A DNA stretch of 64,000 bases from Deltaproteobacteria bacterium HGW-Deltaproteobacteria-4 (GCA_002841765.1 PHAV01000004.1:59075-123074); one strand, 5' to 3'; shown: positions 32,911 to 52,033, numbered from the stretch's first letter. The notes: a model not told the origin generated them from the sequence alone. Program-made: numbers and translations.

Positions 32911-32963
32911 GACGTCCATAAAAAAGAGCAGCCTCTTATCGGGGCTGCTCTTTTTATGGACGT
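32911..32963. terminator. Bidirectional intrinsic terminator shared by ahpC (+) and the DUF11 operon (-)
   Basis: GACGTCCATAAAAAAGAGCAGCC-N8-GGCTGCTCTTTTTATGGACGTC, an extended palindrome with A/T runs on both sides. Confidence 0.85.
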
Positions 32964-32971
32964 CTTTCTGA

Positions 32972-35809
32972 CTACTTAATCCTGACTCTGAATTTGACGT
33001 TAAAGGCCGGGTGATTCGTGCCATCTGATCCGTTGAAGGTTCCGCTTAAGGGAATCTTGATATCGGTAACAGACGGGTCGCACTGGTTACTGTCCGGCGC
33101 GGTATTGCTCTTGAGGTAGATATCTGCACCGTTATTTCCGGAGAAGGCAAGGTTGTCCGTTGTGCTGGCCAGACTGGTAAAGGTGTAACTGAGGCCGCTC
33201 GGAATGGGACCATCGGTAAAGAGGACCGGTCCGGAACCGGCCCCATTGATATCACCGACAAAAAGTTCGGTGTTGGCCGGAATCGGGTCGGTAATGACGG
33301 TGCTGTTGTTGTCAACGGCTCCGGGGCCGGTATTGCTGACCGAAATAGTGTATGTCATAAAAGCGCCGGGAATCGCTTTGGGCAAGCTTGTACCGTTGAT
33401 CGGGTCGGAAAAGGTCTGCGCTGATTTAATCACCAGGAGACTCGGTAACGGACTGATCACGGAGGCGCTTTTTATGCCGTAATCGCTGACCGTCCCTTCC
33501 GTCCCCTCGAAAGCATGAACCAGTGCGGTCCAGTTGCCAGAAGTGTTGAGCGTATAGGGGCCATATTCGAAGGTTTTAGTTGCCGGGGTGGTCAGGGCGC
33601 TGAGTTCTGTCATCGGTCTGGCTGTGACCGCGACCGTGCCGTCAGGTTTGGTGAGCGTGAGGGTTGGTAGTGTAGTCGGCTGACTGGCGTTGATGTCATA
33701 ACTGCCGAAGGGATCGCTGATTGTGCTGCGGATGTAGACAATTTTCCCTGGAGCGGCAGAGGTGACAACGCTCCCGGCCGGGTAGGCAGCGTCGTAGTAG
33801 GTAATGGAGTCGACATTGATGACGGTGCTGGCCGGGAGTTCGACCCGCGATCTCCCCCAGGTGGGGTTGGTGATGTAAACGCGCATACTATCAGTCACTG
33901 CGGCGGCAGTGTTGGTGACAGTTAACTCCCACCGGTTGCCTGCGGCACAGGTGACTGGTGTTGTCCAGGGTGGTGTCGGCGTTGACAAATCGAATCGTAC
34001 CATATCCTGATTGATGGTTAAATTGATCGTCTTGGTGTTGGTAAGGGTCGTCCCTCCCGAGGAACATTGCAGATCAACCTTGACGGTGCGGTTGCCGGGG
34101 TTGCTGTTGTACCGCAGGAGCAGATAGACCGGAACTGTGCTGTTGACCTTCGGATCGATAGTGATAGCCGCGGCGGCACCCGGATCCATCGTCCAGCGCT
34201 GCAAACCAGAGAGGGCGATTGTTGCATAGGATGTTGAGCTGTTGGGGGTGCGTGAGAGTTTATGCGCCGGTGTTGAAGTGCTATCGTACAGATAGAGCAG
34301 CTTGTTGCCGCTCCCTGTGACCGTCGCCGCCTGAACGGTGAGTGTCGGCGCTGCTGGTGTCCCCCCGAGGCCGCCGGGATTAGTGACGGTGGCGCTGTTG
34401 GCGATCGGTGTCCCTGCCGGGGTGGCGGCGGCAACGGTGACTTCGAAGACGATGGTTACGCTCCCTGACGCCGGCACAGTAATGCCGGTGAGATTAAGGT
34501 AGCCGGTGCCATTGGTCCCGCCGCCGGTTGTCGAGCTATTGCCGGCTCCGGCGGGGATACTTATAACCGTAAAGTTGTTGACATTGGCGGGGATATTGTC
34601 AGTAACAGAGACGCCGGTGGCAGTGTACCCCGAGTTCTCCTTGAGAGTGATGGTATAGCGCAGGACATCGCCGGGTTGAAGATCATCACCGTTCTTGTCA
34701 AGGACCCCCTTGGTCGAAGTCGAGAGGTCGGGAAAGTTTGCACCGATAATAGTATTGGTGTCACTGGCGCTGGTGCTTTTGTCGGTGACGGAGACAGAGG
34801 CGGTATTGGTGACGGTTCTCGTTCCTGAAGGGGCGGGACTGGCGGCCAGGGTCGCGTTAATGGCGAAAGTCACGCTGCTGTTAACCGGCATGGCAGGAAT
34901 GGTGATTCCGGCCCCCTGCATCGCGGCCACGGTCGTGGCCGGACAGGTCGTCCCGATCGCGCTGCATGAGACGGTGCTGACGGTGAGGTTAGGGGCAACC
35001 GGGTCGGTGAAGACGACATTGCTCAGAGCTGCACCGGTGGTGTTGGTAATTACGACTGTGTAGGTGGTGGCGGCGCCAGGGCTAAGCGCCGTCTTACCGT
35101 CGCTTTTACTGATGGAGGGGAGGACTACGACGTTGATCGAACCGTATTCGACATTAGTGGCGAGCAAGGTGTTCGGCGAGTTGCATTTAGAAGTCGTCCC
35201 GGGGAGGGCATCGGCAATCGAAGTGCAATTGGCTCTTTTTTGATGATCCCAGCTGACGACAAAGGGAATAAAGAGTTTGCCATTACTCAGGTCGACGGCT
35301 TGGCAAAGGACCGGGACATCGTAGAGTCGCACGATGCCCGAGCCTGTGCCGCCGTTAATAGTAGGATTGCCGTCGCCGCAGGTATCGGTGCTGCCGTACT
35401 GTTCGATATCGGTAAAGGGGCTAATAGTTGGCAGGATGCCGACAGTGCAGCTATCAGCGCCGCCACTGGCAGGGAGGAGCTTCGGCGTCTTGCCGTCCCG
35501 GGAAAGGAAGATGCCGACATCATAACGATCAGGCTGGGCAAAATTAACCGTAATATCGAGGTTGGCGGTGAAGGAGCTACCACCGACACAAGCGGTGGGG
35601 GTTCCCGGCGCAACAGAGATGCCGGTAATAGACACATCAGCGGCCGTGCACCCCAGATTTGAGTTGTAGCGCGCCGCCACACATTCGTTGTCGCCGTAGG
35701 CCATTACTGCCGACGCCAAGGTAAGTATGAAGGCACATGTTAAAGCGACAGCGATCAGTGCAGAGCGCAAGAGTTGTCGCCGGTGTAGACCATTATTTGC
35801 AAAGATCAT
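32972..35809 (-). CDS. Secreted 945-aa DUF11-repeat protein (protein J), paralog of the 1389-aa protein but lacking the lectin-like head
   Basis: Signal peptide with an RR motif (NNGLHRRQLLRSALIAVALTCAFILTLASAVMA). DUF11-type repeats (e.g. LQPGDVLRYTITLKENSGYTATGVSVTDNIPANV). The C-terminal ~230 aa are near-identical to protein E and end in FNVKFRVRIK. Confidence 0.85.
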   Translation of the reverse strand: MIFANNGLHRRQLLRSALIAVALTCAFILTLASAVMAYGDNECVAARYNSNLGCTAADVSITGISVAPGTPTACVGGSSFTANLDITVNFAQPDRYDVGIFLSRDGKTPKLLPASGGADSCTVGILPTISPFTDIEQYGSTDTCGDGNPTINGGTGSGIVRLYDVPVLCQAVDLSNGKLFIPFVVSWDHQKRANCTSIADALPGTTSKCNSPNTLLATNVEYGSINVVVLPSISKSDGKTALSPGAATTYTVVITNTTGAALSNVVFTDPVAPNLTVSTVSCSAIGTTCPATTVAAMQGAGITIPAMPVNSSVTFAINATLAASPAPSGTRTVTNTASVSVTDKSTSASDTNTIIGANFPDLSTSTKGVLDKNGDDLQPGDVLRYTITLKENSGYTATGVSVTDNIPANVNNFTVISIPAGAGNSSTTGGGTNGTGYLNLTGITVPASGSVTIVFEVTVAAATPAGTPIANSATVTNPGGLGGTPAAPTLTVQAATVTGSGNKLLYLYDSTSTPAHKLSRTPNSSTSYATIALSGLQRWTMDPGAAAAITIDPKVNSTVPVYLLLRYNSNPGNRTVKVDLQCSSGGTTLTNTKTINLTINQDMVRFDLSTPTPPWTTPVTCAAGNRWELTVTNTAAAVTDSMRVYITNPTWGRSRVELPASTVINVDSITYYDAAYPAGSVVTSAAPGKIVYIRSTISDPFGSYDINASQPTTLPTLTLTKPDGTVAVTARPMTELSALTTPATKTFEYGPYTLNTSGNWTALVHAFEGTEGTVSDYGIKSASVISPLPSLLVIKSAQTFSDPINGTSLPKAIPGAFMTYTISVSNTGPGAVDNNSTVITDPIPANTELFVGDINGAGSGPVLFTDGPIPSGLSYTFTSLASTTDNLAFSGNNGADIYLKSNTAPDSNQCDPSVTDIKIPLSGTFNGSDGTNHPAFNVKFRVRIK

Positions 35810-35907
35810 GATTTTCCAGACAATTGGTCAGGACAATAATTCATCGAGTATAAGATGGTGGCTGATGATAAGCCGCTGTCGTTGCACCGGCATAAGGAAT
35901 GTAACTT

Positions 35908-38900
35908 TTAAAACTGTTGCAGTGCCTCACGCACTGAATTCTGGTCGAACTTGAAGCGGAACTTGACGAACGGTCCCTGGGCGGTGAAGTCAGCGGCAGA
36001 GAAGTCGCGGTCGGTAAAGCCGATAAAGTTATAGCCGACACTGAACCAGGCATTCTTGACCAGATTGTAACCGATGGAGGCGCCACTACCGTATTTTAAT
36101 TGTTTCGCCTGCCAGGAATGAAGCACCTTACCGGTGACGCCGACATCCCATTTACTTGTGAGATCATAGCGCCCTTCCAATCCCGTCAGGTCGGTGTAGC
36201 CGCTGTAGTCGTGTTCATCGATCGTTTCATTAACGTACTTGGCGCCGTATTGCAGCGAAAGCTGCGTCTTGCGATTATGACTCTTCCAGTTAGCGTTGAT
36301 ATTGTTGATCAGCCGCCAGTTGTCATAATTAAAGTCGCCGCCCTGCTGCTTGTCGAAGAGATAATCGAGACGGTTCAGCACAATCCAGGCAGTCTCTTGC
36401 GGCCGATAAGCGAGACTGAAACGGAGATCGCCGTTGGTCTCCTTGGCACCGGCAATACCGTTGGTTTTAAAAATCTGAGCGGCAGCCCCTAAACCAAGAC
36501 CGTCCTGAACTTCGCCGTAGATGCCGGTAAAGAGACCGAACTTGTCTTCCTCATCCGAGGTCCGCATCTCCAGACGACCGGTCCAGGACCAGTTTTCTTC
36601 CTTATACGAAGCCCCGCCAGTGATGGCCGTATAGTCCGAGGTGCCGGCAGCGGCCGGGACATTGACGTTAAAAGGTGCAGTCCCTGATTTTCTGATGGTG
36701 TCGCTCCGGTCGAGTCCGGCGTCAACACTCCATTTCTTCGAGATTTGCCAGGACTGTTTGAGCCCGCTTACCGAGAAGACACGCGTACCATTCTCTGAAG
36801 ATTGCTGTTCCATGGACGAACTGACCTGTCCCCCTGCCCACGGTGAAGATCTCAGGCCGATCCGCGTCATCTGCGTCCGTTCCAGCGAACCCCGGCTCAA
36901 TTCGTGGGCAATAAAGAAGCTCACGCTTTCGCTTAACCTGTAATCAGCACCGATCAAAGTTCGCGTCGGAAAGTCGGCGTTGTCATTGCTGTTGTGCAGC
37001 GATTGGTCATGTTCCGCTCGCAGGGTCAATTTGTCGCCAAAGAGGCTATAGGTGCCGCCGCTGATAAATTGGTCTGAAGTATTATTCTCACCATTTCCCA
37101 AATTATCCTGGGCGTGTCTCAACCCTGCGCGCAGGGAATAACCCTTTTCACTGAAAGCGGTTTGAACTTCAGCCATATCCCTGACAGCGTCCGTGCCAAG
37201 ATTGTTTTGGCGGAAGGCTCCGGTCTGCAAGCTGACCTTTTCATTCCAGCGGTAAGTTCCATCCACGCCGATCTTTCTCGTACCGCTTTCACTTCCCATC
37301 TGTTGACCCAGACCGAAATCATTATCCTGTTCACGCAGATAAATCTTGCCATCGACGACCTTGGTCCGGTGCGAAATTTCTGCCAGATAAGCGATACCGC
37401 TGGCGCTGCTGCCAACGAAGTCGTTTTCGGTTGTTGCCACTTCCGCTTTGATGATCGTCTCTTCCGTGAGCTTGATGGTGGTATCGAGCCCGGAGAGATT
37501 ACCTTCGCCGCCAACACGACCTTCATGGACATGAGTGGCGCCGACTTCGACGCGCTTATCCATGAAGCGCAGTGCTCCTCGTCCGCCGTAATTGTAGGAT
37601 TTGTCGCCGGTATCTACGGATTCATAGTTAATGACGATGTAGATCGGATTAAAGTTTTCATCACGATGGTAAACAGGGCTCTTGAAGAAGAGGGTCCCCT
37701 TTTCGTAATCGATGTCGTAGTCGATATGCCGGTTCAGCTTTTGTGAAGAGATCACCACTTCACTTTTGAACCGATCGCGACTTTCGATGGTGATCGTCTC
37801 GGAGTTAATGACGAGATCTGTTCTTGACAAGCGGTAAAGACCGGAAGTGCCGTCGCCGCGCAGTTCATCCTTGACAAAGGCCTGGTTGGTGTCGCTGACA
37901 AAGAGATTGAAATCAAGATTTTCGCTCTTCATCTCCGACTTCAGACCGTTAAAATTCCGGCTGTAGCGGGAAAGTTCGGTCACCGAGAGCCCGGTATCAT
38001 AATCACCAAAGAGCGCATAGAACTGATCGCGCTCAATCTTGAGATAAAGACTGCGGGCACTGGCGGCCTCATACTGTTGTGACGAAGCGTCGCCGTAAAG
38101 GGTGTAATACTGCTGCGGGTCGATCGTGCCGTAGAGACTTCCGGCCTGACGCATTCCCGCTTTAGCGCTGTCGTAGGCTGCGGTCAGAAGCCATTTCCCC
38201 TGGATCATCCCTTTGGCAAAGAAGGCGAGTCGGCCATCTTCATAATATTCATCATCGATCTGCGAAGCTTTGATGTTCTCCAGATTTCCCGAGAGGGAGT
38301 TATATCCCGCTGTCCCTTCGGCAAAACCGACAATGATCCATTCCCGTTCACCCGGAGTCAGCCAGGCGCGCACTTCGCTTTCTCCCTTAACGAAATTGAA
38401 GCGCAGGGTCGCCTCGCCGGTCTGGGTGGTCGGTTGCAATTCAATGCGGGCGATACCGTCTTCGTCGACCAGATACTTCAGGCGTGCACTCTTGGCAAGC
38501 AGCAGCGGGTTCTCTTTGAGGTCTTTTTCCAGTTGCAAAGGGAGGTAAGGGGGGTCGAGTTGATACTCACCGACCAGTCCTGCACGGGCAGGGTGGCCGT
38601 CTTTGTCGGTCAAACGGACAGCGATCACCGAAGGGAATTTGCCATCTGCGGTCAGCCGCGATTGACCCGGCATCACTTCAGCTTTAACCGGAGAGGTCGA
38701 ATAGTGCAGAGTGCGGGCAACACGGCGCACTTCCTGGCCATCGACAGAGCTTTCAACCGCTTCAAAGAGGTTGTCACCGTCGCTCAGGTGAATGCCGATC
38801 CAGAGGCTAATTGCGACCTGGTTGTCACCCCGCTTTTTGGTGCCGTCAAGATAAAGGGGATCGACCTCTTTACCGTTGAGCAACAGTTTGAGTCTCTTCT

Positions 38901-41682
38901 GCGGATCATGAGTCACAGCGATCTTGGCACTGGGGATGGCGGGATAAAAACCGTTATAGGGCCAGACAAAATTGAGACTGGGCTGAGCTGTTTCGAGCCA
39001 CGTATTATCGAATTCCGGCATGGTGCGGGCGATTTTACGCTCTTTTCTGACCTTCTCCGCCGCCGAGACTTCGGCCAGTTTCAAGGCAGTGACATCGACC
39101 GTTTTAAGGCCACTGTATTCCTTGATATTTTCGAGTTTGGTCCATTGATTGACCAATTCTGTCAAAATCTTTAATTCCACCCGGCGATTCAGTGCGCGGC
39201 CTTCTGCGGTTTCATTGCTGGCGATCGGTTCATCCGGACCCTTGCCGGCAATCGTCACTTGCTCCGGCAACAGGTTAAGGCCGGCCTGCAGATAATCGAC
39301 GACTGATTTCGCCCGGGCCTTCGAGAGTTCATAGTTGTCGGCCATGATGTGTCGACTGCGAGGGGCGATGCGGGTGCTATTGGTATGACCGGTGGCAGAG
39401 ATCTGGCTCACATGCACATTTTTAAATTCGGCGATGATCCCGTCGAGAACTTTTTTGTCAGGATCGGAAAGCTCGTAACCAAACTCATCAAAATACGGGC
39501 GCAGAATAATCGCCGGGATCGACCTGCGTTCGCTGGTGGATTCATTCTTAAGGATATTATCGACCAGCGGCGTGCGCTTGTTCTTCTCTTCGCTGGTATT
39601 GAAGGTCAGCAGCGCTTTCGCCGTCAACTCGCCGTTCTTGAGATGTGGAACCAGTGTCCCCTTTAATCTGATCTTGCCTGTCCAATCCGCCGGACTGTCT
39701 CCCAGGCGATAGGTGAGAACACTTTCCGTCACTTCCGGGTCGGCCAGAGCAAGACCATCGCGGCTGCTGCTAGCGCCTTGATAAATCACCCCATCGGGGA
39801 GGATCACTGTCAAGCGCATATTCGTCGTCGGCACTGCGCCGACATGGAGTGTCACCGTATAAGTGACGTCATCACCGAGCGTGCTTGCCAACTCAAGTCC
39901 GACAGATCCCTGCACCGGTGGGGCTTCCGGCTTTTTCTTGGTGTAAAAATCAGCGCGCCAGAGGGTTCCGCCTTGCAGATCGACAAATTGGGAGAAGGGC
40001 GTCCCGGCAAAGCGACTATTCTCTTCACAGCTGATGAGTTCATACTCGTTCGGAATCGTCTCCAGGTCGAGTTGAACAACATGCGTCCCGGCCTGAATTC
40101 CTTCAAAGTGATACATCCCCTGCAGGTCGGTGATGACGTAAGTACCATTTTCCAGGTAAAGACGTACGCCGGCAAGTCCATCACCCTCTGCGCCGTCATT
40201 CGGGCAGCCGTTGGGATAGACGCGACCGACAATCGTCGTCTTGCTGGAGAAGAGATCCTCTTTAACGACTATTTCGAACTTGGCAATATTGGAAGTGATG
40301 CCGCCGCTGCCGGTGGCGGTGGCAATATTGACCGCCGGTCCCAAGGGTGCCGCGACTGCCACTTCGACGACATAAGTGATGGTCATACTCTGCCCGGCGG
40401 CGAGAGTGCCGACGGTAAAGAGCATGCTTCTGCCGTCGGTTGAGAGCGTCGGGTCGGCAGCACTGACGCCATCGATTTTGGTCGAGCCTTTGCGGTAGCG
40501 CAGGCCAAGGGGGAGGCGGTCGCTGAGCACAACGCTGTTGACAGCGAGAGTCCCGGTATTCTCGGCGGCAATGCGATATTGCAGGAAATCACCGATGGCG
40601 ACGATCGTTTTCGAGGCGGTTTTGTTCAGACGCAGCCAGGTCTGCTGGGGATCGAGAGGGATATCGATATGGAGCGCCGGCCCGGGATTGATCAGGAAGA
40701 CCTCGCCACGGGATCCGGGGTTAATGGCAAAGGGGGCACCGGGGAGGGTCTGAATCTCACTGGTGGAGACCGTCGAGGGGGCAAGATAGCCCGAACCCGC
40801 TGGCGGTGTCACTACGAGGAGATATCTTCCCGGCTCGACAAAAGGAAAACGATAAAATCCATCCGGGAAGGTATAGATGCGTCCAGAGCTGTCGGTGACT
40901 GTTCCCCCTGAAGTTATCGTCGAGGGATAGATGCTGACACCGTCATCGCCGTAAATAGTCGCCGGCAGACCGGTAGCGGCATTGATGAAGGTAATGGTCG
41001 CACCATTCACCGGCAAACCGGTCATGCTGTCAAAGACTATCCCGTAGGGGTCAACAAGGGCACTCGCCGCCGAACTGTCAGTGCCATCGACGACATCAGT
41101 GTAACGCCCCTGAACCCGTGTATTCTGCTGGACGAAGAGGAGACCGTTCCCGGAGGTACTGGTGCCGGTGGTTGTTGACTGGATATAACCGGTGAAGATG
41201 CCGGTATCCGGACCGGTCTCAGTGAGACGCAAGATCTCGGATTCACTCGTTCCCGGAATGGTCAGGGTGACAATGACTGACTCGGCGACGGCGGGGTCAA
41301 GATTTTGGTCGAGGTCGCTCAAACGCAGAAAGAACGGCTCGTTTTCATGGTAGACCGTTGCCAGCACCAGCGGCAGGGTGCCGAGAGTCAGGGGTGCCGA
41401 TGCGCCGAGGGGAAGGGGGGGCGGCATCGGGATAAAGCTGCCGGCAGCAAAATAGCTGGTCGTTGCCACTGGCAGGAGTAAGAGTTTTTCGGGATCAGTG
41501 ACTGAGGGGGCATAAGTCAGGAAATCGAGTTGCGACGGGGTGCGGATGACGGTTGAGACCAGGTTCGATTCTCTAGTCTGGGGCAGAGTGTCGACGTGAT
41601 AGCTGGCATAGGCGGTATTGTCGACAGTTACGGCGGCATGAGCAGAAGGAGCGAGGAGAACAAAAGCCAATAAGAACGTCAT
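35908..41682 (-). CDS. Giant (~1924 aa; up to 2004 aa if TTG 41922 is used) outer-membrane protein (protein I): DUF11 / SdrD-B-like modules + internal OmpA-C peptidoglycan-binding domain + large C-terminal beta-barrel-like region
   Basis: Signal peptide MTFLLAFVLLAPSAHA|A at ATG 41682. DUF11 (IVAIGDFLQYRIAAENTGTLAVNSVVLSDRLPLGL). SdrD-B/CarboxypepD-like (IVGRVYPNG...GVRLYLENGTYVITDLQGMYHFEGIQAGTHVV). OmpA-C (SATGHTNSTRIA...LSKARAKSVVDYL...AEGRALNRRVELKI). About 850 C-terminal aa are rich in alternating-strand patterns, Gly/Tyr/Asp turns, and end ...GPFVKFRFKFDQNSVREALQQF. Confidence 0.85.
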   Translation of the reverse strand: MTFLLAFVLLAPSAHAAVTVDNTAYASYHVDTLPQTRESNLVSTVIRTPSQLDFLTYAPSVTDPEKLLLLPVATTSYFAAGSFIPMPPPLPLGASAPLTLGTLPLVLATVYHENEPFFLRLSDLDQNLDPAVAESVIVTLTIPGTSESEILRLTETGPDTGIFTGYIQSTTTGTSTSGNGLLFVQQNTRVQGRYTDVVDGTDSSAASALVDPYGIVFDSMTGLPVNGATITFINAATGLPATIYGDDGVSIYPSTITSGGTVTDSSGRIYTFPDGFYRFPFVEPGRYLLVVTPPAGSGYLAPSTVSTSEIQTLPGAPFAINPGSRGEVFLINPGPALHIDIPLDPQQTWLRLNKTASKTIVAIGDFLQYRIAAENTGTLAVNSVVLSDRLPLGLRYRKGSTKIDGVSAADPTLSTDGRSMLFTVGTLAAGQSMTITYVVEVAVAAPLGPAVNIATATGSGGITSNIAKFEIVVKEDLFSSKTTIVGRVYPNGCPNDGAEGDGLAGVRLYLENGTYVITDLQGMYHFEGIQAGTHVVQLDLETIPNEYELISCEENSRFAGTPFSQFVDLQGGTLWRADFYTKKKPEAPPVQGSVGLELASTLGDDVTYTVTLHVGAVPTTNMRLTVILPDGVIYQGASSSRDGLALADPEVTESVLTYRLGDSPADWTGKIRLKGTLVPHLKNGELTAKALLTFNTSEEKNKRTPLVDNILKNESTSERRSIPAIILRPYFDEFGYELSDPDKKVLDGIIAEFKNVHVSQISATGHTNSTRIAPRSRHIMADNYELSKARAKSVVDYLQAGLNLLPEQVTIAGKGPDEPIASNETAEGRALNRRVELKILTELVNQWTKLENIKEYSGLKTVDVTALKLAEVSAAEKVRKERKIARTMPEFDNTWLETAQPSLNFVWPYNGFYPAIPSAKIAVTHDPQKRLKLLLNGKEVDPLYLDGTKKRGDNQVAISLWIGIHLSDGDNLFEAVESSVDGQEVRRVARTLHYSTSPVKAEVMPGQSRLTADGKFPSVIAVRLTDKDGHPARAGLVGEYQLDPPYLPLQLEKDLKENPLLLAKSARLKYLVDEDGIARIELQPTTQTGEATLRFNFVKGESEVRAWLTPGEREWIIVGFAEGTAGYNSLSGNLENIKASQIDDEYYEDGRLAFFAKGMIQGKWLLTAAYDSAKAGMRQAGSLYGTIDPQQYYTLYGDASSQQYEAASARSLYLKIERDQFYALFGDYDTGLSVTELSRYSRNFNGLKSEMKSENLDFNLFVSDTNQAFVKDELRGDGTSGLYRLSRTDLVINSETITIESRDRFKSEVVISSQKLNRHIDYDIDYEKGTLFFKSPVYHRDENFNPIYIVINYESVDTGDKSYNYGGRGALRFMDKRVEVGATHVHEGRVGGEGNLSGLDTTIKLTEETIIKAEVATTENDFVGSSASGIAYLAEISHRTKVVDGKIYLREQDNDFGLGQQMGSESGTRKIGVDGTYRWNEKVSLQTGAFRQNNLGTDAVRDMAEVQTAFSEKGYSLRAGLRHAQDNLGNGENNTSDQFISGGTYSLFGDKLTLRAEHDQSLHNSNDNADFPTRTLIGADYRLSESVSFFIAHELSRGSLERTQMTRIGLRSSPWAGGQVSSSMEQQSSENGTRVFSVSGLKQSWQISKKWSVDAGLDRSDTIRKSGTAPFNVNVPAAAGTSDYTAITGGASYKEENWSWTGRLEMRTSDEEDKFGLFTGIYGEVQDGLGLGAAAQIFKTNGIAGAKETNGDLRFSLAYRPQETAWIVLNRLDYLFDKQQGGDFNYDNWRLINNINANWKSHNRKTQLSLQYGAKYVNETIDEHDYSGYTDLTGLEGRYDLTSKWDVGVTGKVLHSWQAKQLKYGSGASIGYNLVKNAWFSVGYNFIGFTDRDFSAADFTAQGPFVKFRFKFDQNSVREALQQF

Positions 41683-41934
41683 GCAGAGATGACGGCAAAG
41701 TTCAGCGCGTTTCGCGAACACTTCACTGCAGGAAGGACTCGCGGTACGGTCTGAAAGAAGCCCCGCAGCGAAGGAAGAACGACGGCTTTGCATCGCCACT
41801 CTTCCCCCGATGCGGGTCATGATGAAGTGTGCAGCACAAAGGCGCAACACGGCGCTGCCGCCGGGAATGATCCCGGCGGTGAAGCGTCGTATTACTGCCT
41901 TTATGCTGCTCAGAGTCGACAAACTGTTTCCTGA

Positions 41935-43179
41935 TTACTGAATAATAACGTTGAAAGTTAATGTGAAGACTTCACCAGGCTTCAATTCCCCGACCGTGTA
42001 ACTGGCTTCGGCGGGGAGCAAGGTTGCAAGGGTGGCCGTGATTGCCTGCCCCGAAAGCTCAACACCATCGGCATCGCTGGTCGTTGTGTAGTACTTAGCA
42101 ACATTTCCGCCAGCAAGGCCGCTACCGGCATTGCCGATTCGACTCCCGGTCACTGATGCCTTGAAACCAGATCCTGCTGCAGATTCAGCTGCAGGCGTTG
42201 CCGGCGTGCTGAAATCAGTCAACAAATCAGCATCCATGAGCAAGCTGGCAATCAGGGTGTCACCGATGCTGGTGAGGGTCGCGGAGGAGGGAGCTCCCGC
42301 GTCATTGGTAATCGTCACAACATATTGCACAATGGCACCGGGGATCGCTTTCGGAGTGGTGGTGTAATTGATCGGATCCCAGAGCGTCGTTGCTACTTTA
42401 TTGACAGAAATATCAGCCGAGGAAACAACGAAGACGCTATAAGCCGAATCTGCCCCATCAAGATTGCCATCTTCTGGACCCGTCCCGGCAGCCGTATCAG
42501 CCAGAACAACGGGGACCGCTGCCGTACAGCCCGGACCATTATAAGTCGATGCATTGGTCGTCTCTGCACCCAGGGCAGCTGCAGTACCACCGGCAGCTGT
42601 ATTTGCATTCAGCGCATAAACCGCTTTACTGCCATTGGCCAAGGCAACAGCAATAGCCGGGGTTCCGGTGGCAACGATATAAACGGTTCTAGATGTATCT
42701 GGTGCAAGTTCGTCGATGTAAGTGGCAACATCTAATACGTCATAACCGACTGCGTCGCCCGATTCGACAACGACGACGACGCCGGAAGCGTTAAAGGTAT
42801 CGACGGAATCGTTCGCTGCCCAGACGGTGTAAGTGCCATTTGCTTTAGTGACCGGGGTAAGGATGTAATCCTGAACGGTATTACCAATATTTGTGACGGT
42901 AAATTCTAACACCGCTTGCAGGGTGCCGGTGCCGGGCACAACAGAGACCCCGGGAGCCGCGTCTGCCGTTATGACCGTGAGATTGACCTTACTCGCGACC
43001 TCAAAAGGTGTAGCAGTGCCATTTTCTACAGGTTGAGTCACTCCTCCGACAGCGTAGGTAAGGGATGCCGTGTTCGTGATGTCTGTACAGACCGGTGTGC
43101 CTGCGGCCAATGCCGATAGCGGCGTCATTGCCGCGAAAGCGGCAGCCAAAAGAAATGCTGATAAACGGGTTCTTTTCAT
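41935..43179 (-). CDS. Secreted 415-aa DUF11-type pilin-sized protein (protein H)
   Basis: AGGAGAG lies before ATG 43179. Signal peptide MKRTRLSAFLLAAAFAAMTPLSALA|AGTP. The mature N-terminus TDITNTASLTYAVGG is shared with protein F. Terminal module WDPINYTTTPKAIPGAIVQYVVTITN. Ends FTLTFNVIIQ. Confidence 0.85.
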   Translation of the reverse strand: MKRTRLSAFLLAAAFAAMTPLSALAAGTPVCTDITNTASLTYAVGGVTQPVENGTATPFEVASKVNLTVITADAAPGVSVVPGTGTLQAVLEFTVTNIGNTVQDYILTPVTKANGTYTVWAANDSVDTFNASGVVVVVESGDAVGYDVLDVATYIDELAPDTSRTVYIVATGTPAIAVALANGSKAVYALNANTAAGGTAAALGAETTNASTYNGPGCTAAVPVVLADTAAGTGPEDGNLDGADSAYSVFVVSSADISVNKVATTLWDPINYTTTPKAIPGAIVQYVVTITNDAGAPSSATLTSIGDTLIASLLMDADLLTDFSTPATPAAESAAGSGFKASVTGSRIGNAGSGLAGGNVAKYYTTTSDADGVELSGQAITATLATLLPAEASYTVGELKPGEVFTLTFNVIIQ

Positions 43180-43263
43180 GGTGCTCTCCTTTTTTGCTGG
43201 TTGTAGTTGTTCTTGCGGGACAATTCCCAGGTGTAAAAGCCAACCCCCTATTTCCAATGTTCG

Positions 43264-43758
43264 TTATTTCACTTTAGCTTTGTAAGAGACGCTGCCCTTG
43301 GCGCCGTCTTGCAGGGCTCCTTCGAATGTCCAGCGGATGTGGGTGTAGTCCGCTGCGCTGGCCGGTTGCTCCTTTCCTTCGGCATCCTTGATCTTCAATT
43401 TGTCGGCCGCGGCGAAGATTTGACCCTTATCAACAGAGAAATCGATGCGCGCCCCTTTCCCCTCGGCCGTATTGTCAAGATAGAGCATATGCTCCGGCAG
43501 CGGATTGTTGATGACCACATTCGTTGCCGGTTTATCTCCCTGGTACTCATAGTGCGTAGTAAAGATGATCGTATCGCCGGGGGTAACATTGGTATCTGCG
43601 GCGGAGACACGAACGGTCTCCTGCTCCCCTTTATCATTCTTGACGATGATATCGATCTCGGCGGTTGACTTGAGTTCGATCCCTTTTTTCTCGGCGGCAC
43701 TGGCGGGGAGGGCGACCAGCACGAGAAGGGATAAAATGGCTAGCAATTTTTTTGTCAT
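43264..43758 (-). CDS. Secreted single-domain DUF11 protein, 164 aa (protein G)
   Basis: Signal peptide MTKKLLAILSLLVLVALPASA|AEKK. One DUF11 repeat (VTPGDTIIFTTHYEYQGDKPATNVVINNPLPEHMLY). Ends SVSYKAKVK. Confidence 0.85.
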   Translation of the reverse strand: MTKKLLAILSLLVLVALPASAAEKKGIELKSTAEIDIIVKNDKGEQETVRVSAADTNVTPGDTIIFTTHYEYQGDKPATNVVINNPLPEHMLYLDNTAEGKGARIDFSVDKGQIFAAADKLKIKDAEGKEQPASAADYTHIRWTFEGALQDGAKGSVSYKAKVK

Positions 43759-43808
43759 AAGTGACTCCTATCTGTCTGGTTCTCTTGAAAAATTTTACGT
43801 TTATCGCT

Positions 43809-44822
43809 TTAGTTGATCGTCACATCGAAGGTGATAGTCTGCTCCGGGGAAGCATTGGTCAGATCGCCGAGACCGACGGTGACCGTCACTGGCGCGCCAG
43901 CGACACTGCCGACATCAAGATCAGCGCCATCGCTTAGCGGTGCGCCGTTTAATTTAAGGGAGCTAACGACATAGGTGGAGTTATCAGGTATTTCGTCGGT
44001 GATCACCACGTCTGCGGCAGTACCGACACCGGTGATGGAGGCTTTGATGCTGTAGGTAAGGATGGCGCCGGGGATTGCCTTCGGAGTGACGAAGAGATTA
44101 GTCGGGTCCCAGGTAATTACCACCGATTTGTTCAAAACCAGAGAAAGGAGGTTGACGGTATAGGTCCCTTCTGACGAGTGTTTTCCGTCACGAGTAGTAT
44201 CACCGGCGGCACTGCCGGCATTATCGGCAAAGATGACATCAACGCCGGCGGTATTAGGGCCGACAGTTGCAGTTGTCACAGTCGTGGTGCCGGCATCGAC
44301 TGTCGTAGCAACAAGTTGATAATCTGATATGTCCCCACTGACCGCCCCTGCCGGGGTGTCGGCAATGATCAAGATTGCAAGGCTGTCATCCGCATCAACG
44401 TCACCAAAGGTGGCAGCGTTGACATAGAGAGTGTCACCGGCATCCAGAACGCCGGGAGTGGTGCCGTTGTCGAGGAAGATGCGGACATTATCCATGACAA
44501 TGCCGGCGCTGTTGGTTGCGTCCAGGGCATAGCGCTGCGTGGTATTGCCTTCGTTCTTGACTGAAAAGACAAGGGCTTGATCGGTTGATCCGGGTAAAAC
44601 AGTGGCGTCACCATTTTTAGTCACCGTCAGGTTGACCTTGTTGTCGACAACGATATTCGGAGCCGATGCGGTCTTGGTCACCGGAGTAGCGCCATCGTTA
44701 TAGGTGGCGGTTGCCGTGTTAGAGATATCCGTCCCCGACGGGGTTCCGGCTGCATAGGCCGCTTGAGTGAGCGGATAGCAGAGCGCCAGGAGCAGAGCGA
44801 TGGTGGCAATCTTTTTTGTCAT
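43809..44822 (-). CDS. Secreted 338-aa DUF11-type pilin-sized protein (protein F)
   Basis: AGGGAGG lies before ATG 44822. Signal peptide MTKKIATIALLLALCYPLTQAAYA|AGTP. TDISNTATATYNDG. Terminal module WDPTNLFVTPKAIPGAILTYSIKA. Ends QTITFDVTIN. Confidence 0.85.
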   Translation of the reverse strand: MTKKIATIALLLALCYPLTQAAYAAGTPSGTDISNTATATYNDGATPVTKTASAPNIVVDNKVNLTVTKNGDATVLPGSTDQALVFSVKNEGNTTQRYALDATNSAGIVMDNVRIFLDNGTTPGVLDAGDTLYVNAATFGDVDADDSLAILIIADTPAGAVSGDISDYQLVATTVDAGTTTVTTATVGPNTAGVDVIFADNAGSAAGDTTRDGKHSSEGTYTVNLLSLVLNKSVVITWDPTNLFVTPKAIPGAILTYSIKASITGVGTAADVVITDEIPDNSTYVVSSLKLNGAPLSDGADLDVGSVAGAPVTVTVGLGDLTNASPEQTITFDVTIN

Positions 44823-44907
44823 GGTGTACCTCCCTTTCTTTTCTTGTGTTGAACCGGGTTTGAAAAGTTGTGAGCGAATAAAAAATCCATATCTTGTTCC
44901 TTTCTGA

Positions 44908-47900
44908 TTATTTGATCCTGACTCTGAATTTGACGTTGAATGAGGGGTGATTGGTTCCATTTGAACCATTAAAGATGCCGATTAAGGGGATTTTTATATT
45001 GGTAACTGTCGAGTCGCAGCCGTTAATGTCCGGTGCTGTATTGCTTTTGTCGTAATTCGTGCCGCCATTGCCGGAAAAGGCGAGATTGTCAGTGGTGCTG
45101 GCCAGACTGGTAAAGGTGTAGCTGAGGCCGCTCGCAGTCGTGCCATTGTTAAAGAGGACAGGACCGATCGATGGCCCGGCACCGTCGAAGTCGTCGACAA
45201 AGAGTTCGGTGTCGGCCGGAATCGAATCGGTAATGACGGTGGTGTTGCTGTCAACTGCGCCGGCGCCAAAGTTGGTGACCTGGATGGTGTAGTCGACAAA
45301 AGCGCCGGGAATTGCTTTGGCTCCTGCTCCTTCACCATTAACCGGGTCGGAGAAGACCTGTGATGATTTGACCACCAGCAGGTTCGGCATCGGCACGATG
45401 ACGCTCAAGGCTTGCAGTGCGTAATCACTGACCGTCCCCTCGGTCCCCTCATTGGCAACGACGCGGGCGGTCCAATTTCCGGCCGGGCCGCCGGCCGGGA
45501 TGGTGTAGGGGCCGTACTGGTAGATCTTGGTGGCGGCGTTTGAATCGTAGGCTACGCTCATGGCGACCGGAGCAGGCGAACCAATCCGGGTAACACCGGA
45601 GGGGTCAGTCAAAGTCAGGGTGGCGCCGGTGATATCGTAACTGCCGAAGGGGTCACTGACCGTGGCGCGGATATAGACCGTGCTTCCGACAGTCAGCGAG
45701 GTAACGCTGCTGCCGCCAGGGTAGAGGGCAGTATGGAAGGTGATGTCGCTGTTATTGATGTTGATGACGTTTTTCGAGTTGATAGTGACCATCGACGAGT
45801 TTCCGGTCGACGGCGCTGGGTAGACGTTGATGTTGCGTCCAGTTCCGGTGCCTCCCTGGGTGTTGGTGATGTCCATGATCAGGGCGTTGCCGCTGGCACA
45901 GGTGTAATCAGTTGACGATACAGGAGTGAGGGTAAAGTCGTAGCGGACGGCGCCTCCGACGACTAAGTCGGCGCTTAGTGAGGTTGTGGCGACGCTCGTT
46001 CCGCCGCACGTCAGCGTAATCGGGATGGTATAGGTACGGTTGCTGTTGGTCGAGAGCCAGAGGGTCACCGGAATATTGCCGTTGCTGATCGTCACATCCG
46101 ACTGCAGGGCCGGGTTGAGCGTCCAACTCTGGGTAATGCTGCCGCGGGGGATCGCGACAATAGAGCCGGCTGCGGTCGGCATCGGTGTGCGCGAGAGTTT
46201 ATAGCTGGGGGTTGAGCTGTTGTTATAGAAGTAGAGGGGTTTGTTCCCGGAACCCGGTAGCGAGCCGCTATTGACGATCAGTGCTGGCGCATCGGGATTG
46301 GCGCCGATGCCGCCGGGGACGGTGACCGTGGCACTGTTGTCGATGACCGTCCCCGTCGCGGTGCCGAGGGGGATGGTGACATCGTAAATGAGCGTGACGC
46401 TGCCGCTGGCCGGGACGGTGATGTTGGTGATATACAGGTAGCCGGTACCATTACCGCCGGTACCGAAGGGGGTCGAGAGGTTGGTGGCGCCGCCCGGCAG
46501 GGGGAGAATGACACTAAAACCGCTAGTGTTGTTGGGGATGGTGTCGGTCACCGACACGTTGCTGGCGCCAACTCCGGCAGTTTCAGTCAGGGTGATAGTG
46601 TAGCGGATGACATCACCGGCCAGGGGGTCGCCGCCGCTGGTGCGGTTAATCCAGTTTTTCGTTGAGGTCGAGAGGTTAGGAATAGCGACAGTTGTGGTGT
46701 CGCTGACGTCACGGGTCTGGCTCGCCAGGCCGGTGGTATATGTGGCGCGGGTAACGACAGTGTCAATCGTTCCGTTCGTGGCGCTGCCCGGAATCGTCTC
46801 ACGCACCAGGATGCAGATATTTTCGTTGGCTTCGAGATTGACCGCCGCAGTGATATCCGATTCGCCGGCATCGAAGCTGCCGTTGCAGTTGTTGTCGCGC
46901 ACATAGGTAATCGCCGGCCAACCCCCCTGGGTACGGCTGTTTGTGGTAAACGTGACATTGCCGCGGGCTGTGGCGGTGAAGATATGCGCGTAGTAGACCG
47001 GTGTTGATGAGTTGCCGACTGCGCTTAAAGGGGTCGGTGTGAAGTTGATAGTGATCGGCGGCGGTATATCGCCGAAAATGAGATTGAAGTAGTCGGTATA
47101 GAGGGTATAGGCAAACTGCTGATATTCACCGGCAATGGTGTAAGTACTGCCGGTCGTGCCGGAGTTATAGCTGACCGAGGTGTAGCCGGCGAGATTGTTT
47201 TCATAGATACGCAGGGTGGCGCTGGCGGTGTTGGTGAAGAGGGCGAAGTTGCCGCCGGCATCGGTGGTGACGGTATCGTAGGTGGTGGTTCCGGTGCTAT
47301 TGCGCAGCGTCAACGTCACCCCGGCGATGCCGGTCTCGGCGGCATTGAGAATACCGTCATAAGCGGTGGTGATACTGCCGTTGAAGCCGTCATCCTTGAT
47401 CACTTTGCCGCTGATGCGACTGCCGTTGTAAAGGAAGAAGTTCCGGTTGGTCAGATTGGCGCCGCTGGCGACAACTCCGCTCAGGGTATAGTTGATGGGG
47501 GTGACATAGATCCAGTTGGCGCTCGGAAAGCTCGGGTCGTAGACATTGACGGTGTTGGTGGAGCTGAGAATGACGACATAATCACCGTAGCTCGGGACTC
47601 CGGAAAAAGTGTAAGTGCCGAGAGTAGTGCTGACCTGCACAGGGGCGACGACAGTGGTACTCAGGTCGCTGGCGCGAAAAAGTTTGGCATAATAGGTCTG
47701 GCCAGTGACCTGGGATTCGCCGCCGTCGCGCACGCCGTTGTGGGCGATGCCGCCGCTAAAACCGTTGTCATTGTACACCGTGCCGCTGATGCTGATCGTG
47801 CCGCTGCTGACGGTGGTGCTGACACTGGCGCTGTTGTCGGCCGGCAGATAGTCAATGATGCCGGCCGGCGGCGTCAGGGTGGCGGTGTTGACCAGGACCG

Positions 47901-49077
47901 TGCCCTGTGGGGTAGCGGCGGCGACCGTGCCGGTGATGGTATAGGTGGCAGCGCCGTTAAAGGGGAGGGTGGCCGTGGTGTTAATGTTGTTGCCGCTCCC
48001 TGCAGCGGCGCCGCAGGTTCCGCCACCGGAGCCGGCGCAGGTCCAGGTAACACCGGTTAACGCTGCCGGGACAGTATCGACGATCGGTACGTTGTTGGCG
48101 ACGGTCACCAGGTTGGGGCCGTAGTTGCGGGCGGTGACGGTATAGGTCAATGCGCCGCCGGGAGCGACGGTCGGGGCAGAAGCGGTTTTCGCGATAGCGA
48201 GATTGATGTTTATCGGTAGGTTGTCGATGGCGAGATTGCGGATTTCGTGATAGTTGGTCGAACCGCCGGTACTGGCGGCATAGCCGACCTTGACCGTGCT
48301 CGGGATCGGCCGCATGGTGTAAAGGGTGTCGACCAGATAGGTCAGGGGCTGGTTGTAGCCAAATTGCATAAAGACATCGACACGCATGTATTCCGGTGCG
48401 GCGACCGGCGTCAGGTAGATGACGACCTTGCGATACTGGCTGCTGAGTTGGCCGGGGCGAAAGGCCTGATTGTACCAGAGGGTGCCGATGTTGGCAGCCG
48501 TGCCGCCAATGTAGTAATAGGCGCCGAGGGAGTGGTCGTAGGGGCCGCGCACTGCCACTGAATTTTGCCGCTGGCCCGGACCACCCAGCCGACCTTCGGT
48601 CGGATTGGAAAAATTGCCGTACTCGTCGATACCGACACCGATATAGCCGCCACTGAGACCGGGGGAAACAGGCGCGACGGTCTTTTTATCGTAGCCAAGG
48701 GAGCCGCCCGAGGCGCCGACCTGAAAGGTTGTAGCGTTATAGGCGCCGTCAAAGAGATAAATACTGTAACCGTCGGCACCGTTGCCGCCCCAGGTGGCGT
48801 AGTCGAACTGGATGACGACTCCCTGTGAAATGTCGAAGGAGCTGTCATACATGGCAAAGCCGGATTGGTTGCCGGTCGGTTCGGTCAGACGCAGCCAGCC
48901 GTTGCCGGGGGCGTCGACACCTGTGCTGGCGGTGAGGTAGGCTGCACCGCCAATGACCCAGCCGGGGGCGGTGGCACCGGTCATTGGCTGGTCGAGGAGG
49001 GCAGCCTGACCCGGCAAAGCCAGGCCGATGGCCAGGATCAGGATTGCGATAATAATTAATGGGTTTCGATTTTTCAT
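44908..49077 (-). CDS. Secreted 1389-aa adhesin-like protein (protein E): L-type-lectin-like head + DUF11 + two SdrD-B-like modules + shared C-terminal region
   Basis: Signal peptide MKNRNPLIIIAILILAIGLALPGQA|A. Lectin-like motifs (GWLRLTEPTGNQSGFAMYD..., GADGYSIYLFDG, GGYIGVGIDEYGNFSNP). DUF11 (VAPGGALTYTVTARNYGPN). SdrD-B-like (ISGTVYNDNGFSGGIAHNGVRDGGE...GTYTFSGVPSYGDYVV; ISGKVIKDDGFNG...GNFALF). Ends FNVKFRVRIK. Confidence 0.85.
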   Translation of the reverse strand: MKNRNPLIIIAILILAIGLALPGQAALLDQPMTGATAPGWVIGGAAYLTASTGVDAPGNGWLRLTEPTGNQSGFAMYDSSFDISQGVVIQFDYATWGGNGADGYSIYLFDGAYNATTFQVGASGGSLGYDKKTVAPVSPGLSGGYIGVGIDEYGNFSNPTEGRLGGPGQRQNSVAVRGPYDHSLGAYYYIGGTAANIGTLWYNQAFRPGQLSSQYRKVVIYLTPVAAPEYMRVDVFMQFGYNQPLTYLVDTLYTMRPIPSTVKVGYAASTGGSTNYHEIRNLAIDNLPININLAIAKTASAPTVAPGGALTYTVTARNYGPNLVTVANNVPIVDTVPAALTGVTWTCAGSGGGTCGAAAGSGNNINTTATLPFNGAATYTITGTVAAATPQGTVLVNTATLTPPAGIIDYLPADNSASVSTTVSSGTISISGTVYNDNGFSGGIAHNGVRDGGESQVTGQTYYAKLFRASDLSTTVVAPVQVSTTLGTYTFSGVPSYGDYVVILSSTNTVNVYDPSFPSANWIYVTPINYTLSGVVASGANLTNRNFFLYNGSRISGKVIKDDGFNGSITTAYDGILNAAETGIAGVTLTLRNSTGTTTYDTVTTDAGGNFALFTNTASATLRIYENNLAGYTSVSYNSGTTGSTYTIAGEYQQFAYTLYTDYFNLIFGDIPPPITINFTPTPLSAVGNSSTPVYYAHIFTATARGNVTFTTNSRTQGGWPAITYVRDNNCNGSFDAGESDITAAVNLEANENICILVRETIPGSATNGTIDTVVTRATYTTGLASQTRDVSDTTTVAIPNLSTSTKNWINRTSGGDPLAGDVIRYTITLTETAGVGASNVSVTDTIPNNTSGFSVILPLPGGATNLSTPFGTGGNGTGYLYITNITVPASGSVTLIYDVTIPLGTATGTVIDNSATVTVPGGIGANPDAPALIVNSGSLPGSGNKPLYFYNNSSTPSYKLSRTPMPTAAGSIVAIPRGSITQSWTLNPALQSDVTISNGNIPVTLWLSTNSNRTYTIPITLTCGGTSVATTSLSADLVVGGAVRYDFTLTPVSSTDYTCASGNALIMDITNTQGGTGTGRNINVYPAPSTGNSSMVTINSKNVININNSDITFHTALYPGGSSVTSLTVGSTVYIRATVSDPFGSYDITGATLTLTDPSGVTRIGSPAPVAMSVAYDSNAATKIYQYGPYTIPAGGPAGNWTARVVANEGTEGTVSDYALQALSVIVPMPNLLVVKSSQVFSDPVNGEGAGAKAIPGAFVDYTIQVTNFGAGAVDSNTTVITDSIPADTELFVDDFDGAGPSIGPVLFNNGTTASGLSYTFTSLASTTDNLAFSGNGGTNYDKSNTAPDINGCDSTVTNIKIPLIGIFNGSNGTNHPSFNVKFRVRIK

Positions 49078-49208: not shown

Positions 49209-49244
49209 CCTGAATAACTGCTTTTTCTGCGCAGTTAGATCATT

Positions 49245-49340: not shown

Positions 49341-49357
49341 AAACTAAGATTATTATA

Positions 49358-52032: not shown

Positions 52033-52033
52033 G

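Follow-up and report, generated by a model that had tools for sequence, protein, structure and literature searches.

How could a bacterium with two membranes (a diderm) assemble a surface fibre from secreted proteins of the DUF11 family? The question is raised by a six-gene operon in Deltaproteobacteria bacterium HGW-Deltaproteobacteria-4, which we analysed within a 64,000-nucleotide (nt) stretch of its genome (GCA_002841765.1 PHAV01000004.1:59075-123074; hereafter the window, with positions counted from its first letter). The evidence presented here is computational throughout. We propose, with a probability of roughly 0.55, that the operon encodes a self-contained diderm surface-fibre system built on a split CLIPPER (DUF11) domain. 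Six co-directional open reading frames (ORFs), here called E to J, fill positions 32972-49077 on the minus strand, at exactly the coordinates given by a first-pass annotation made from the sequence alone:

44908-49077, minus strand: E, 1389 amino acids (aa)
43809-44969 (longest ORF), minus strand: F; likely start MTKK at 44822, giving 43809-44822, 337 aa, of which 313 aa mature
43264-43758, minus strand: G, 164 aa, secreted
41935-43257 (longest ORF), minus strand: H; likely start MKRT at 43179, giving 41935-43179, 414 aa
35908-41922, minus strand: I, 2004 aa from a TTG start with an AGGA Shine-Dalgarno sequence
32972-35809, minus strand: J, 945 aa

An alternative start of I is the ATG at 41793, which has the sequence GGAAGAG as ribosome-binding site and gives 1961 aa. 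With the most plausible starts, the intergenic gaps measure 85, 50, 84, 12 (or 141) and 98 nt, so that both the short gaps and the ambiguous start of I noticed in the first pass stand. The Sec signal peptides it had assigned to all six products were also recovered, each with an n-region, a hydrophobic core and an AxA-type end when read by eye.

DUF11, recently renamed CLIPPER, forms an autocatalytic intramolecular isopeptide bond between a first-strand Lys and an Asn close to the end of the domain, with the help of a catalytic Asp; in the solved structure 9IFR this triad is Lys715/Asp748/Asn806 (PMC12617251). Pfam and NCBIfam profiles detected DUF11/TIGR01451 in every protein but H, which gave no Pfam match and is a paralog of F (38% identity). 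Complete internal CLIPPER domains with the full triad in matching spacing were found in E (residues 293-420), I (430-545) and J (376-480). They follow the pattern ..xKTx.., ..(S/T)Dx(I/L)P.., a penultimate strand, a short loop and ..(V/I)xN(T/S/I)A(T)... The C-terminal modules of E, F, H and J are CLIPPER domains that lack the last strand and have the Lys and the Asp. All 32 E/J-like tails stop within 0-1 residue of a single point, the end of the penultimate strand, and F orthologs do likewise; in these acceptor modules the first-strand Lys is invariant and the Asp of TDxIP is conserved.

The missing strand is found elsewhere. The mature N-termini of F, H and I read GTxAGTxIxNTAxxxY, which corresponds in essence to the loop and last strand of a CLIPPER domain, isopeptide Asn included (the internal J segment TPAGTPIANSATVT serves for comparison). 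Segments with this motif are called donors below:

44911-45402, minus strand: acceptor module of E (residues 1226-1389), truncated CLIPPER domain that keeps the TDxIP Asp and, in its first strand, the invariant Lys
43812-44147, minus strand: acceptor module of F (mature residues 202-313), with Lys208 and Asp252 invariant in 33 orthologs
32975-33466, minus strand: acceptor module of J, the same truncated CLIPPER module as in E
44691-44750, minus strand: donor segment of F (mature residues 1-20), AGTPSGTDISNTATATY...
43045-43104, minus strand: donor segment of H, AGTPVCTDITNTASLTY...
41575-41634, minus strand: donor segment of I, AVTVDNTAYASY..., directly after the predicted signal-peptide cleavage site

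Both terminal motifs had been seen in the first pass, and both were confirmed: the tail DPxN..PKAIPGA..Y shared by E, F, H and J, and the AGTP..TDIxNTA start of F and H, which we found in I as well. What had been missed is the link between them, namely that the N-terminal motif is the strand lost from the C-terminal module. Across related proteins, the pattern [IVL]xNx[AV]xxx[YFW] occurs in the first 150 aa of 33/40 F, 46/47 H and 51/57 I sequences, as against 0/29 E/J and 2/54 G sequences, and the donor motif always lies directly after the signal peptide. Ser or Thr replaces the Asn in 6 further F donors of the 40.

The match between donor and acceptor was examined with chimeras, in which the last 42 aa of an acceptor were joined to a natural donor and scored against a hidden Markov model (HMM) of the second half of complete CLIPPER domains, with 10 shuffled donors as control. 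The natural donor beat all 10 in 244/314 combinations (chance expectation ~9%). Against a full-domain HMM, F acceptor plus F donor scored 34.7 bits over positions 20-124 of 128, compared with 20.0 bits for the acceptor alone and 21-26.5 bits with shuffled donors; the F donor moved the end of this alignment from position 86 to 124. When whole tails were used, those of E/J did not extend, because an insertion in mid-tail breaks the alignment, and the test with the last 42 aa was used instead. A phmmer search of the E tail against PDB sequences returned nothing meaningful.

Complex prediction for the E tail and mature residues 1-40 of F gave a median ipSAE of 0.46 (0.43, 0.68 and 0.46), which the tool rates as 'weak support', while for the control the best of three was 0.01. 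Contact agreement among the runs was at least 93%, and partner predicted local distance difference test (pLDDT) values were at least 70. In the calibration of the tool, its mark was reached by 58/80 solved complexes and 2/110 mismatched pairs; at scores of 0.60 or below it was reached by 7 of the same 80 and by both mismatches, and with user alignments these counts are only approximate.

The gene set recurs far beyond this genome. Relatives of I were found in at least 569 of 185,579 species genomes. In 80 fetched loci, whose ORFs were all searched with profiles, the order [E/J-like]-F-G-H-I, at times followed by a J-like gene, was present in ~45, essentially all those with enough upstream DNA. 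These loci span at least seven phyla, among them Desulfobacterota, Nitrospirota, Gammaproteobacteria, Lentisphaerota, Krumholzibacteriota, Latescibacterota and Eisenbacteria, which bears out the earlier expectation that the set, and above all its F-G-H-I core, is co-conserved. A cultured carrier is Desulfatibacillum alkenivorans DSM 16219 (locus L070). All-against-all clustering of the neighbours yielded no further conserved gene besides a sigma-54 activator. Within the host's order the distribution is patchy (47/201 genomes, 30/69 genera). Together with the lack of other conserved neighbours, this marks the system as a self-contained accessory module, the term 'self-contained' having been applied to its assembly pathway in the first pass.

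One of the fetched loci (L027) holds, besides its canonical cluster, a shorter variant 3.6 kb downstream (16667-23049, plus strand), which encodes a G-like protein of 186 aa, an F-like protein of 621 aa and an I-like protein. This arrangement suggests a family of related G-pilin-barrel modules.

Donors and acceptors are sorted among the proteins by architecture. E has a lectin-like head, stalk domains of the complete CLIPPER/DUF11 and SdrD_B types, the C-terminal acceptor module and no donor motif. The DUF11 and lectin-like parts of its earlier description hold, the latter with a significant, sub-threshold L-type lectin match (33 bits against a cut-off of 78); of the two SdrD-B modules described, one is above cut-off. 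J is related to the C-terminal 610 residues of E (51% identity to E 779-1389) and had been called a headless paralog; it is a paralog with a head of its own, which is rich in Cys, followed by a TIGR04226 isopeptide-forming fimbrial D2 domain and the same acceptor module, again without a donor motif. F and H are pilin-like: in F an Ig-like N-domain lies between the donor motif and the C-terminal acceptor module, and H likewise combines a donor motif with a C-terminal acceptor. I carries a donor and no acceptor. Of these, the acceptor-only proteins carry adhesin-type heads, the dual ones are pilin-sized and the donor-only protein carries the peptidoglycan-binding domain and the predicted barrel, which is the tip, shaft and anchor logic of chaperone-usher pili. 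E is therefore a candidate tip adhesin and J a candidate alternative tip, while F and H fit shaft or adaptor subunits; these assignments agree with the roles of tip and structural subunit first given to them.

These features suggest the following mechanism. E, J, F and H would be exported by Sec with a C-terminal CLIPPER domain one strand short, and the donor strand at the N-terminus of one subunit would complete the C-terminal CLIPPER domain of the preceding one (donor-strand complementation). The predicted product is a polar chain from the tip (E or J) through one or many copies of F/H to I, which, as a donor only, would terminate and anchor the chain; growth is accordingly predicted at the base. 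Strand exchange in trans is, judging from sequence, slightly favoured. The reconstituted Lys-Asp-Asn triad could ligate subunits without a sortase, as SpyTag/SpyCatcher does; this covalent step, drawn from residue conservation and homology, we put forward tentatively, at a little less than even odds. The chain would be held by I through OmpA-like peptidoglycan binding and a giant barrel, the only candidate conduit in the outer membrane. Of the assembly pathway outlined in the first pass, the self-contained cluster and the roles of tip, shaft and platform are retained, and the role of G as a structural subunit is not.

The best-surviving alternative, which we nevertheless regard as unlikely, is a short stalk of defined length. 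One copy each of E (or J), F, H and I would be held together by strand complementation alone, as a single long adhesin divided over four polypeptides, with neither homopolymer nor isopeptide. The paralogs F and H stand in fixed order in nearly all loci, as would suit specific adaptor roles comparable to those of FimG and FimF, and I bears its own terminator strand in cis, which favours short products. The six of 40 loci whose F donors lack the Asn, and the weak rating of the complex prediction (0.46 against 0.01 for the best control), point the same way. On the other hand, the Lys and Asp of the E/J and F acceptors are invariant or nearly so, a constraint that would be puzzling if these residues had no chemical role. 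Both F and H combine donor and acceptor, the hallmark of polymerising subunits, and F acceptor with F donor is among the top chimera scores.

The structure of F was predicted from an ortholog alignment with AlphaFold2 (AF2) at a pLDDT of 89, comprising a hairpin (residues 12-29), the Ig-like N-domain (37-201) and the C-domain (202-313). Among the solved folds nearest to the C-domain are CnaA-like isopeptide domains from the Gram-positive pilins SpaA, GBS104 and RrgA (3htl, 3txa, 5mkc; Z 7.1-7.4). Fold searches with the F model otherwise returned generic tandem Ig-like matches, and 9IFR was not listed; fold aligners follow sequence order and are blind to whether the N-terminal strand of F sits in the C-domain.

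G differs from the other small proteins. It is a single truncated CLIPPER-like domain that ends at the penultimate strand (36 orthologs), that is, an acceptor-only protein. The Lys position varies, and more than 90% of the 36 orthologs have Asn where the Asp would be expected, so that G could accept a donor strand but not ligate it. With the cross-linking residues lost, its description as an ordinary structural subunit does not hold. G is conserved above F (mean column identity 40% vs 33%), as expected for an assembly factor. We suspect, with more reserve than for the steps above, that G binds donor strands reversibly in the periplasm, either as a holdase or chaperone or as a non-covalent cap.

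I is composed of a long leader, the donor motif, a stalk of ~700 aa (CarboxypepD_reg, the complete CLIPPER domain and an SdrD_B-like domain), an OmpA-C domain, two Ig-like domains and a giant β-barrel:

39184-39495, minus strand: OmpA-C-like peptidoglycan-binding domain of I, residues 810-913 (PF00691, 47 bits against a cut-off of 27.2, full-length profile)
35911-39162, minus strand: conserved C-terminal module of I, residues 921-2004 (1084 aa)

The C-terminal module is conserved end to end, with 49-90% identity in more than 1500 database proteins, which are annotated merely as 'OmpA family' or 'TIGR01451 repeat' proteins. Its AF2 model (pLDDT 70, predicted template modelling score (pTM) 0.50) contains the two Ig-like domains, which gave intimin D00-D0-like and Big-like matches at model residues 60-270, followed by the most conserved stretch of the family (~1190-1320), which is poorly modelled. 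The predicted barrel has ~32 long antiparallel strands over ~570 residues, with several shorter ones before. Pfam searches of residues 1200-2004 identified no family, even at E<=1. Fold searches (Foldseek pdb and exhaustive VIA) returned generic large barrels (SlpA, AlgE, OmpM, VDAC/Tom40, LptD and MtrB), the best match being Deinococcus SlpA (7zgx, Z 15.8, root mean square deviation (rmsd) 14.7 over 458 residues), with OmpM1 also listed. No usher, autotransporter, LptD-specific or intimin/invasin barrel appeared among the top fold matches, and absence from such a list excludes no family. The first-pass view of I is supported in these respects: the OmpA-C domain is present, the C-terminal barrel is supported at the level of prediction, neither Pfam nor fold searches revealed clear homology to a known usher, autotransporter, LptD or intimin class, and the protein fits an envelope platform.

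Judged by the ushers, with 24 strands, and SprA, with 36, a barrel of this size would have room for folded Ig-like domains. I is the sole outer-membrane protein in the cluster, and on this ground the fibre may pass through its modelled barrel, a suggestion that we rate somewhat short of an even chance. The complete CLIPPER triad in the stalk of I would suit an extracellular, load-bearing segment.

Further observations concern I and its relatives. In nearly all orthologs (loci L003-L080), as in the window at 41634-41922, 50-100 residues separate the first possible start from the cleavage site, a long leader reminiscent of the extended signal peptides found in TpsA proteins and large autotransporters. 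In the ESM Atlas, stand-alone Pseudomonadota proteins of ~845-860 aa, unnamed or labelled 'outer membrane protein family', resemble the barrel alone, which indicates that this module exists without the stalk and OmpA parts. A relationship to the TraA/TraB outer-membrane exchange system of Myxococcus was considered and rejected: the TraB equivalog model NF033763 scored 34 bits against a cut-off of 700, in the OmpA region only. In two genomes of the host's taxonomic order, the I homolog is interrupted by four in-frame TGA codons or split into pieces (G014:C2:217256-219756 and G182:C33:54547-57775); they may be pseudogenes, or assembly or recoding artefacts.

Several observations weigh against the split-domain fibre. 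In the AF2 monomer of F, the first 36 residues form a confidently modelled hairpin (pLDDT 82-89) that stays within the monomer, so that the motif could belong to the subunit's own fold or complement it in cis. Longer, fused (unsplit) relatives of F were searched for and none was found, which is weak evidence. In the loci where the F donor has Ser or Thr for Asn (6/40) the acceptors keep their Lys, and covalent linkage therefore cannot be universal. The complex score of the E tail with F falls in the weak range of the tool, and the barrel model of I is of medium quality. Finally, a stalk outside the cell together with a periplasmic OmpA-C domain would require the chain of I to cross its own barrel.

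The hairpin of F also bears on a second alternative, namely that no intersubunit assembly takes place: E, F, H and J would be independent secreted or surface adhesins, the N-terminal motif would be a first strand or a targeting signal recognised by I, and I would be a tether between outer membrane and peptidoglycan or a large porin. The match of I to SlpA, the listing of OmpM1 and the OmpA-C domain suit such a tether, and elsewhere in this genome a paralogous OmpA-barrel protein is paired with a giant adhesin in which no domain is split (see below). We consider this alternative quite improbable, as it leaves unexplained why the acceptors stop exactly one strand before completion of the CLIPPER domain, why the N-terminal motif matches the missing strand down to the isopeptide Asn, and why the anchor, tip and shaft candidates coincide so closely with the donor-only, acceptor-only and dual classes. 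Very unlikely, lastly, is that I is an autotransporter-like adhesin exporting only its own N-terminal stalk, with F, G and H periplasmic or accessory: the passenger-like stalk, C-terminal barrel and 50-100-aa leader do recall classical autotransporters, but I has no Autotransporter or inverse-autotransporter Pfam match, ~32 or more predicted strands instead of the 12 of type V secretion system barrels and a periplasmic OmpA-C domain between stalk and barrel, and the donor and acceptor motifs would be left without a role.

Expression of the putative fibre genes appears to be controlled from the leader of E, in which the upstream promoter and leader proposed in the first pass were resolved into three elements:

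49352-49379, minus strand: sigma-70-like promoter candidate TTAACG-16-TATAAT (10/12 consensus matches; a consensus match only)
49254-49334, minus strand: GEMM-I (c-di-GMP-I, RF01051) riboswitch aptamer (59.6 bits with E 3.9e-9; gathering score 35)
49178-49211, minus strand: intrinsic-terminator hairpin and T-run, a 15-bp stem followed by TTTATTGTTT; candidate expression platform

The terminator hairpin lies ~100 nt 5' of the E start codon, and the leader fold that includes it has a free energy of -58.8 kcal/mol (z = -4.0). The order promoter-aptamer-terminator is the layout of a transcription-attenuation riboswitch. Position 11 of the aptamer model, equivalent to G20 of Vibrio Vc2, is an A, the signature of the GEMM-Ib type, which binds cGAMP, a 3',3'-linked cyclic dinucleotide of GMP and AMP; the aptamer thus shows both a covariance score above gathering and the diagnostic nucleotide. 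Replacement of Vc2 G20 by A is what sets apart the GEMM-Ib class of Geobacter, whose members bind cGAMP and are sometimes bispecific (PMC6140456; PMC6456294). From this one nucleotide, the ligand is probably 3',3'-cGAMP, or the aptamer is bispecific. The same A was found in GEMM-I-clan aptamers directly 5' of the E-like gene in three related loci, of which L065 and L053 carry the label Desulfuromonadales and L047 the label Deltaproteobacteria. The riboswitch would gate transcription in this genome and thereby make the fibre part of a programme of surface attachment.

The host, of a Desulfuromonadales-type lineage, is represented by a 3.0-Mb metagenome-assembled genome from groundwater with ten GEMM-I copies above the gathering score, a density typical of Geobacter-like signalling by cGAMP and cyclic di-GMP (c-di-GMP). 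The leader resembles the GEMM-Ib riboswitches of Geobacter in the A at the G20-equivalent position, the terminator and the Desulfuromonadales-type genome (PMC6456294, PMC6140456). The known regulons of those riboswitches comprise surface and extracellular structures; the members named in the same two papers do not include this operon, and A20 variants can be bispecific. Elsewhere, NtrC-type sigma-54 enhancer-binding response regulators flank the cluster in ~21/80 loci, for example:

L026, 1-1347: sigma-54 regulator
L017, 13790-15190: sigma-54 regulator
L027, 13354-14757: sigma-54 regulator
L021, 66-1484: sigma-54 regulator
~17 further loci: sigma-54 regulators

With sigma-54 regulators in many phyla and GEMM-I aptamers here and in L065, L047 and L053, regulation appears to differ by lineage.

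To place the proposed fibre among known systems, we compared it with several. Closest in logic are the chaperone-usher pili (Fim/Pap), with which it shares Sec-exported Ig-like subunits, a proposed N-terminal donor strand that would complete the fold of the preceding subunit, a donor-less tip adhesin, a donor-only terminator or anchor at the base (PapH/FimI), an operon-encoded outer-membrane barrel and the lack of an ATP source. It differs in that the incomplete fold is a separate C-terminal CnaA-like/CLIPPER domain with isopeptide residues, that the terminator is fused to the barrel protein, which is joined to OmpA-C and has ~32 or more predicted strands instead of 24, and that G, if a chaperone, would be on the accepting and not the donating side of the strand exchange. 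No PapD-like chaperone (PF00345/PF02753) was detected when the six proteins and ten flanking ORFs were scanned with Pfam and NCBIfam. For a PapC/FimD usher (PF00577), residues 1200-2004 of I gave no Pfam match at E<=1, and the fold lists held generic barrels, from which such a family is not excluded. These scans agree with the first-pass statement that chaperone, usher, sortase and secretion-system components are lacking, none having been detected.

SpyTag/SpyCatcher is an engineered split of the CnaB2 domain of FbaB, in which a strand with one reactive residue and the remainder of the domain, with the second reactive residue and the catalytic one, reconstitute and ligate spontaneously. It is man-made, of the CnaB fold and based on an Asp-Lys pair, whereas the split proposed here is natural, CnaA-like and serves polymerisation. 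Sortase pili (SpaA, RrgB, GBS104) and CLIPPER adhesins (9IFR) share with the operon the CnaA-like/CLIPPER, SdrD_B and TIGR04226 families and the Lys-Asp/Glu-Asn triad, and the covalent subunit linkage and tip-shaft-base architecture of the former can be likened to our model. In contrast to sortase pili, the host is diderm and there is no LPXTG, sortase or YPKN pilin motif: the C-termini of E, F, H and J, which end in ..F.V.I.x, carry neither LPXTG nor a transmembrane segment, and no sortase family was found in the window flanks or related loci. The known autocatalytic triads are intramolecular, whereas in this operon a separate polypeptide supplies the strand with the Asn.

An archaeal system of similar principle is the thread of Saci_0406 (PMC9715654), which our model resembles in Sec export, N-terminal donor-strand complementation and sortase-independent intermolecular isopeptide bonds, and for which a donor-only paralog has been proposed as cap, comparable to the donor-only I. 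The thread has no outer membrane and no barrel, and its bond runs from Asp24, through the N-terminal amine, to Asn57 in subunit n-2, rather than from Lys to Asn within a reconstituted CLIPPER domain (PMC9715654). No sequence relationship between the two systems was seen, though no test was aimed at one. Deinococcus SlpA and Veillonella OmpM, like I, combine a very large single-chain barrel with a cell-wall-binding domain and are top structural matches together with LptD- and SprA-type barrels; these matches are generic (rmsd 6-15 Å), the peptidoglycan-binding domain of I is OmpA-C and not SLH, and I adds the stalk and donor motif. Type V secretion was rejected, as its 12-strand barrels (PF03797, PF11924) gave no Pfam match and the I model has ~32 long strands, and so were the type V pili of Bacteroidota, since the signal peptides end in AxA without a lipobox Cys and the donor-like motif is N-terminal, not C-terminal. 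Full-text literature searches returned no description of this system, and their DUF11 matches concerned archaeal adhesins.

In its most far-reaching form, which we offer with considerable reserve, the hypothesis is of an undescribed class of Gram-negative pilus. A natural split-catcher CLIPPER domain, divided between consecutive subunits, would polymerise pilins and ligate them covalently, either at the outer membrane or in the periplasm, with no need of sortase, chaperone-usher machinery or ATP; the product would be extruded through, and anchored to, a new family of giant OmpA-tethered barrels, and cGAMP riboswitches would switch the system on in Desulfuromonadales as part of a particle-attachment lifestyle. 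If true, diderms of at least seven phyla, including the environmentally important Desulfobacterota and Nitrospirota, would possess an unrecognised route to mechanically robust surface fibres. It would also be the first natural intermolecular ligation by a split CnaA-like isopeptide domain and a bacterial counterpart to archaeal threads. The more than 1500 relatives of I, whose barrel has no Pfam model, would form a new family of outer-membrane platforms, and cGAMP/c-di-GMP riboswitch signalling in metal-reducing bacteria would gain a concrete output. Self-assembling, self-ligating protein parts for biotechnology would be possible.

The operon ends downstream of J at a palindrome between J and the convergent ahpC, which corresponds to the bidirectional terminator of the first-pass annotation:

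32911-32964, no strand assigned: bidirectional terminator; palindrome matching at 22/23 nt, flanked by A/T runs and identified by direct reading of the sequence (a consensus terminator scan had not flagged it)

Upstream of the operon, at 51436-54463 on the minus strand, lies a gene for an 809-aa TPR and DUF11 (plus Chlam_OMP6-like) protein, overlapped by one for a 208-aa LysM-TPR protein. Between this pair and the operon stand two genes, for a radical-SAM protein and an inositol monophosphatase, and in other loci no link of the pair to the fibre system was found.

The same genome has a second riboswitch-controlled adhesin locus (L083, contig C5:47500-67000). Its adhesin has no truncated CLIPPER end and its barrel protein no NTA donor motif, so that it must work differently:

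C5:66104-66181 and C5:66350-66427, minus strand: tandem GEMM-I aptamers, directly 5' of the giant adhesin
L083 10035-18587, minus strand: adhesin, a 2850-aa DUF11/DUF7619/SdrD_B repeat protein
L083 4850-10075, minus strand: I paralog, 1741 aa, with an N-terminal OmpA-C domain and a barrel
L083 4289-4849, minus strand: 186-aa protein
L083 2395-4284, minus strand: 629-aa TPR-like protein

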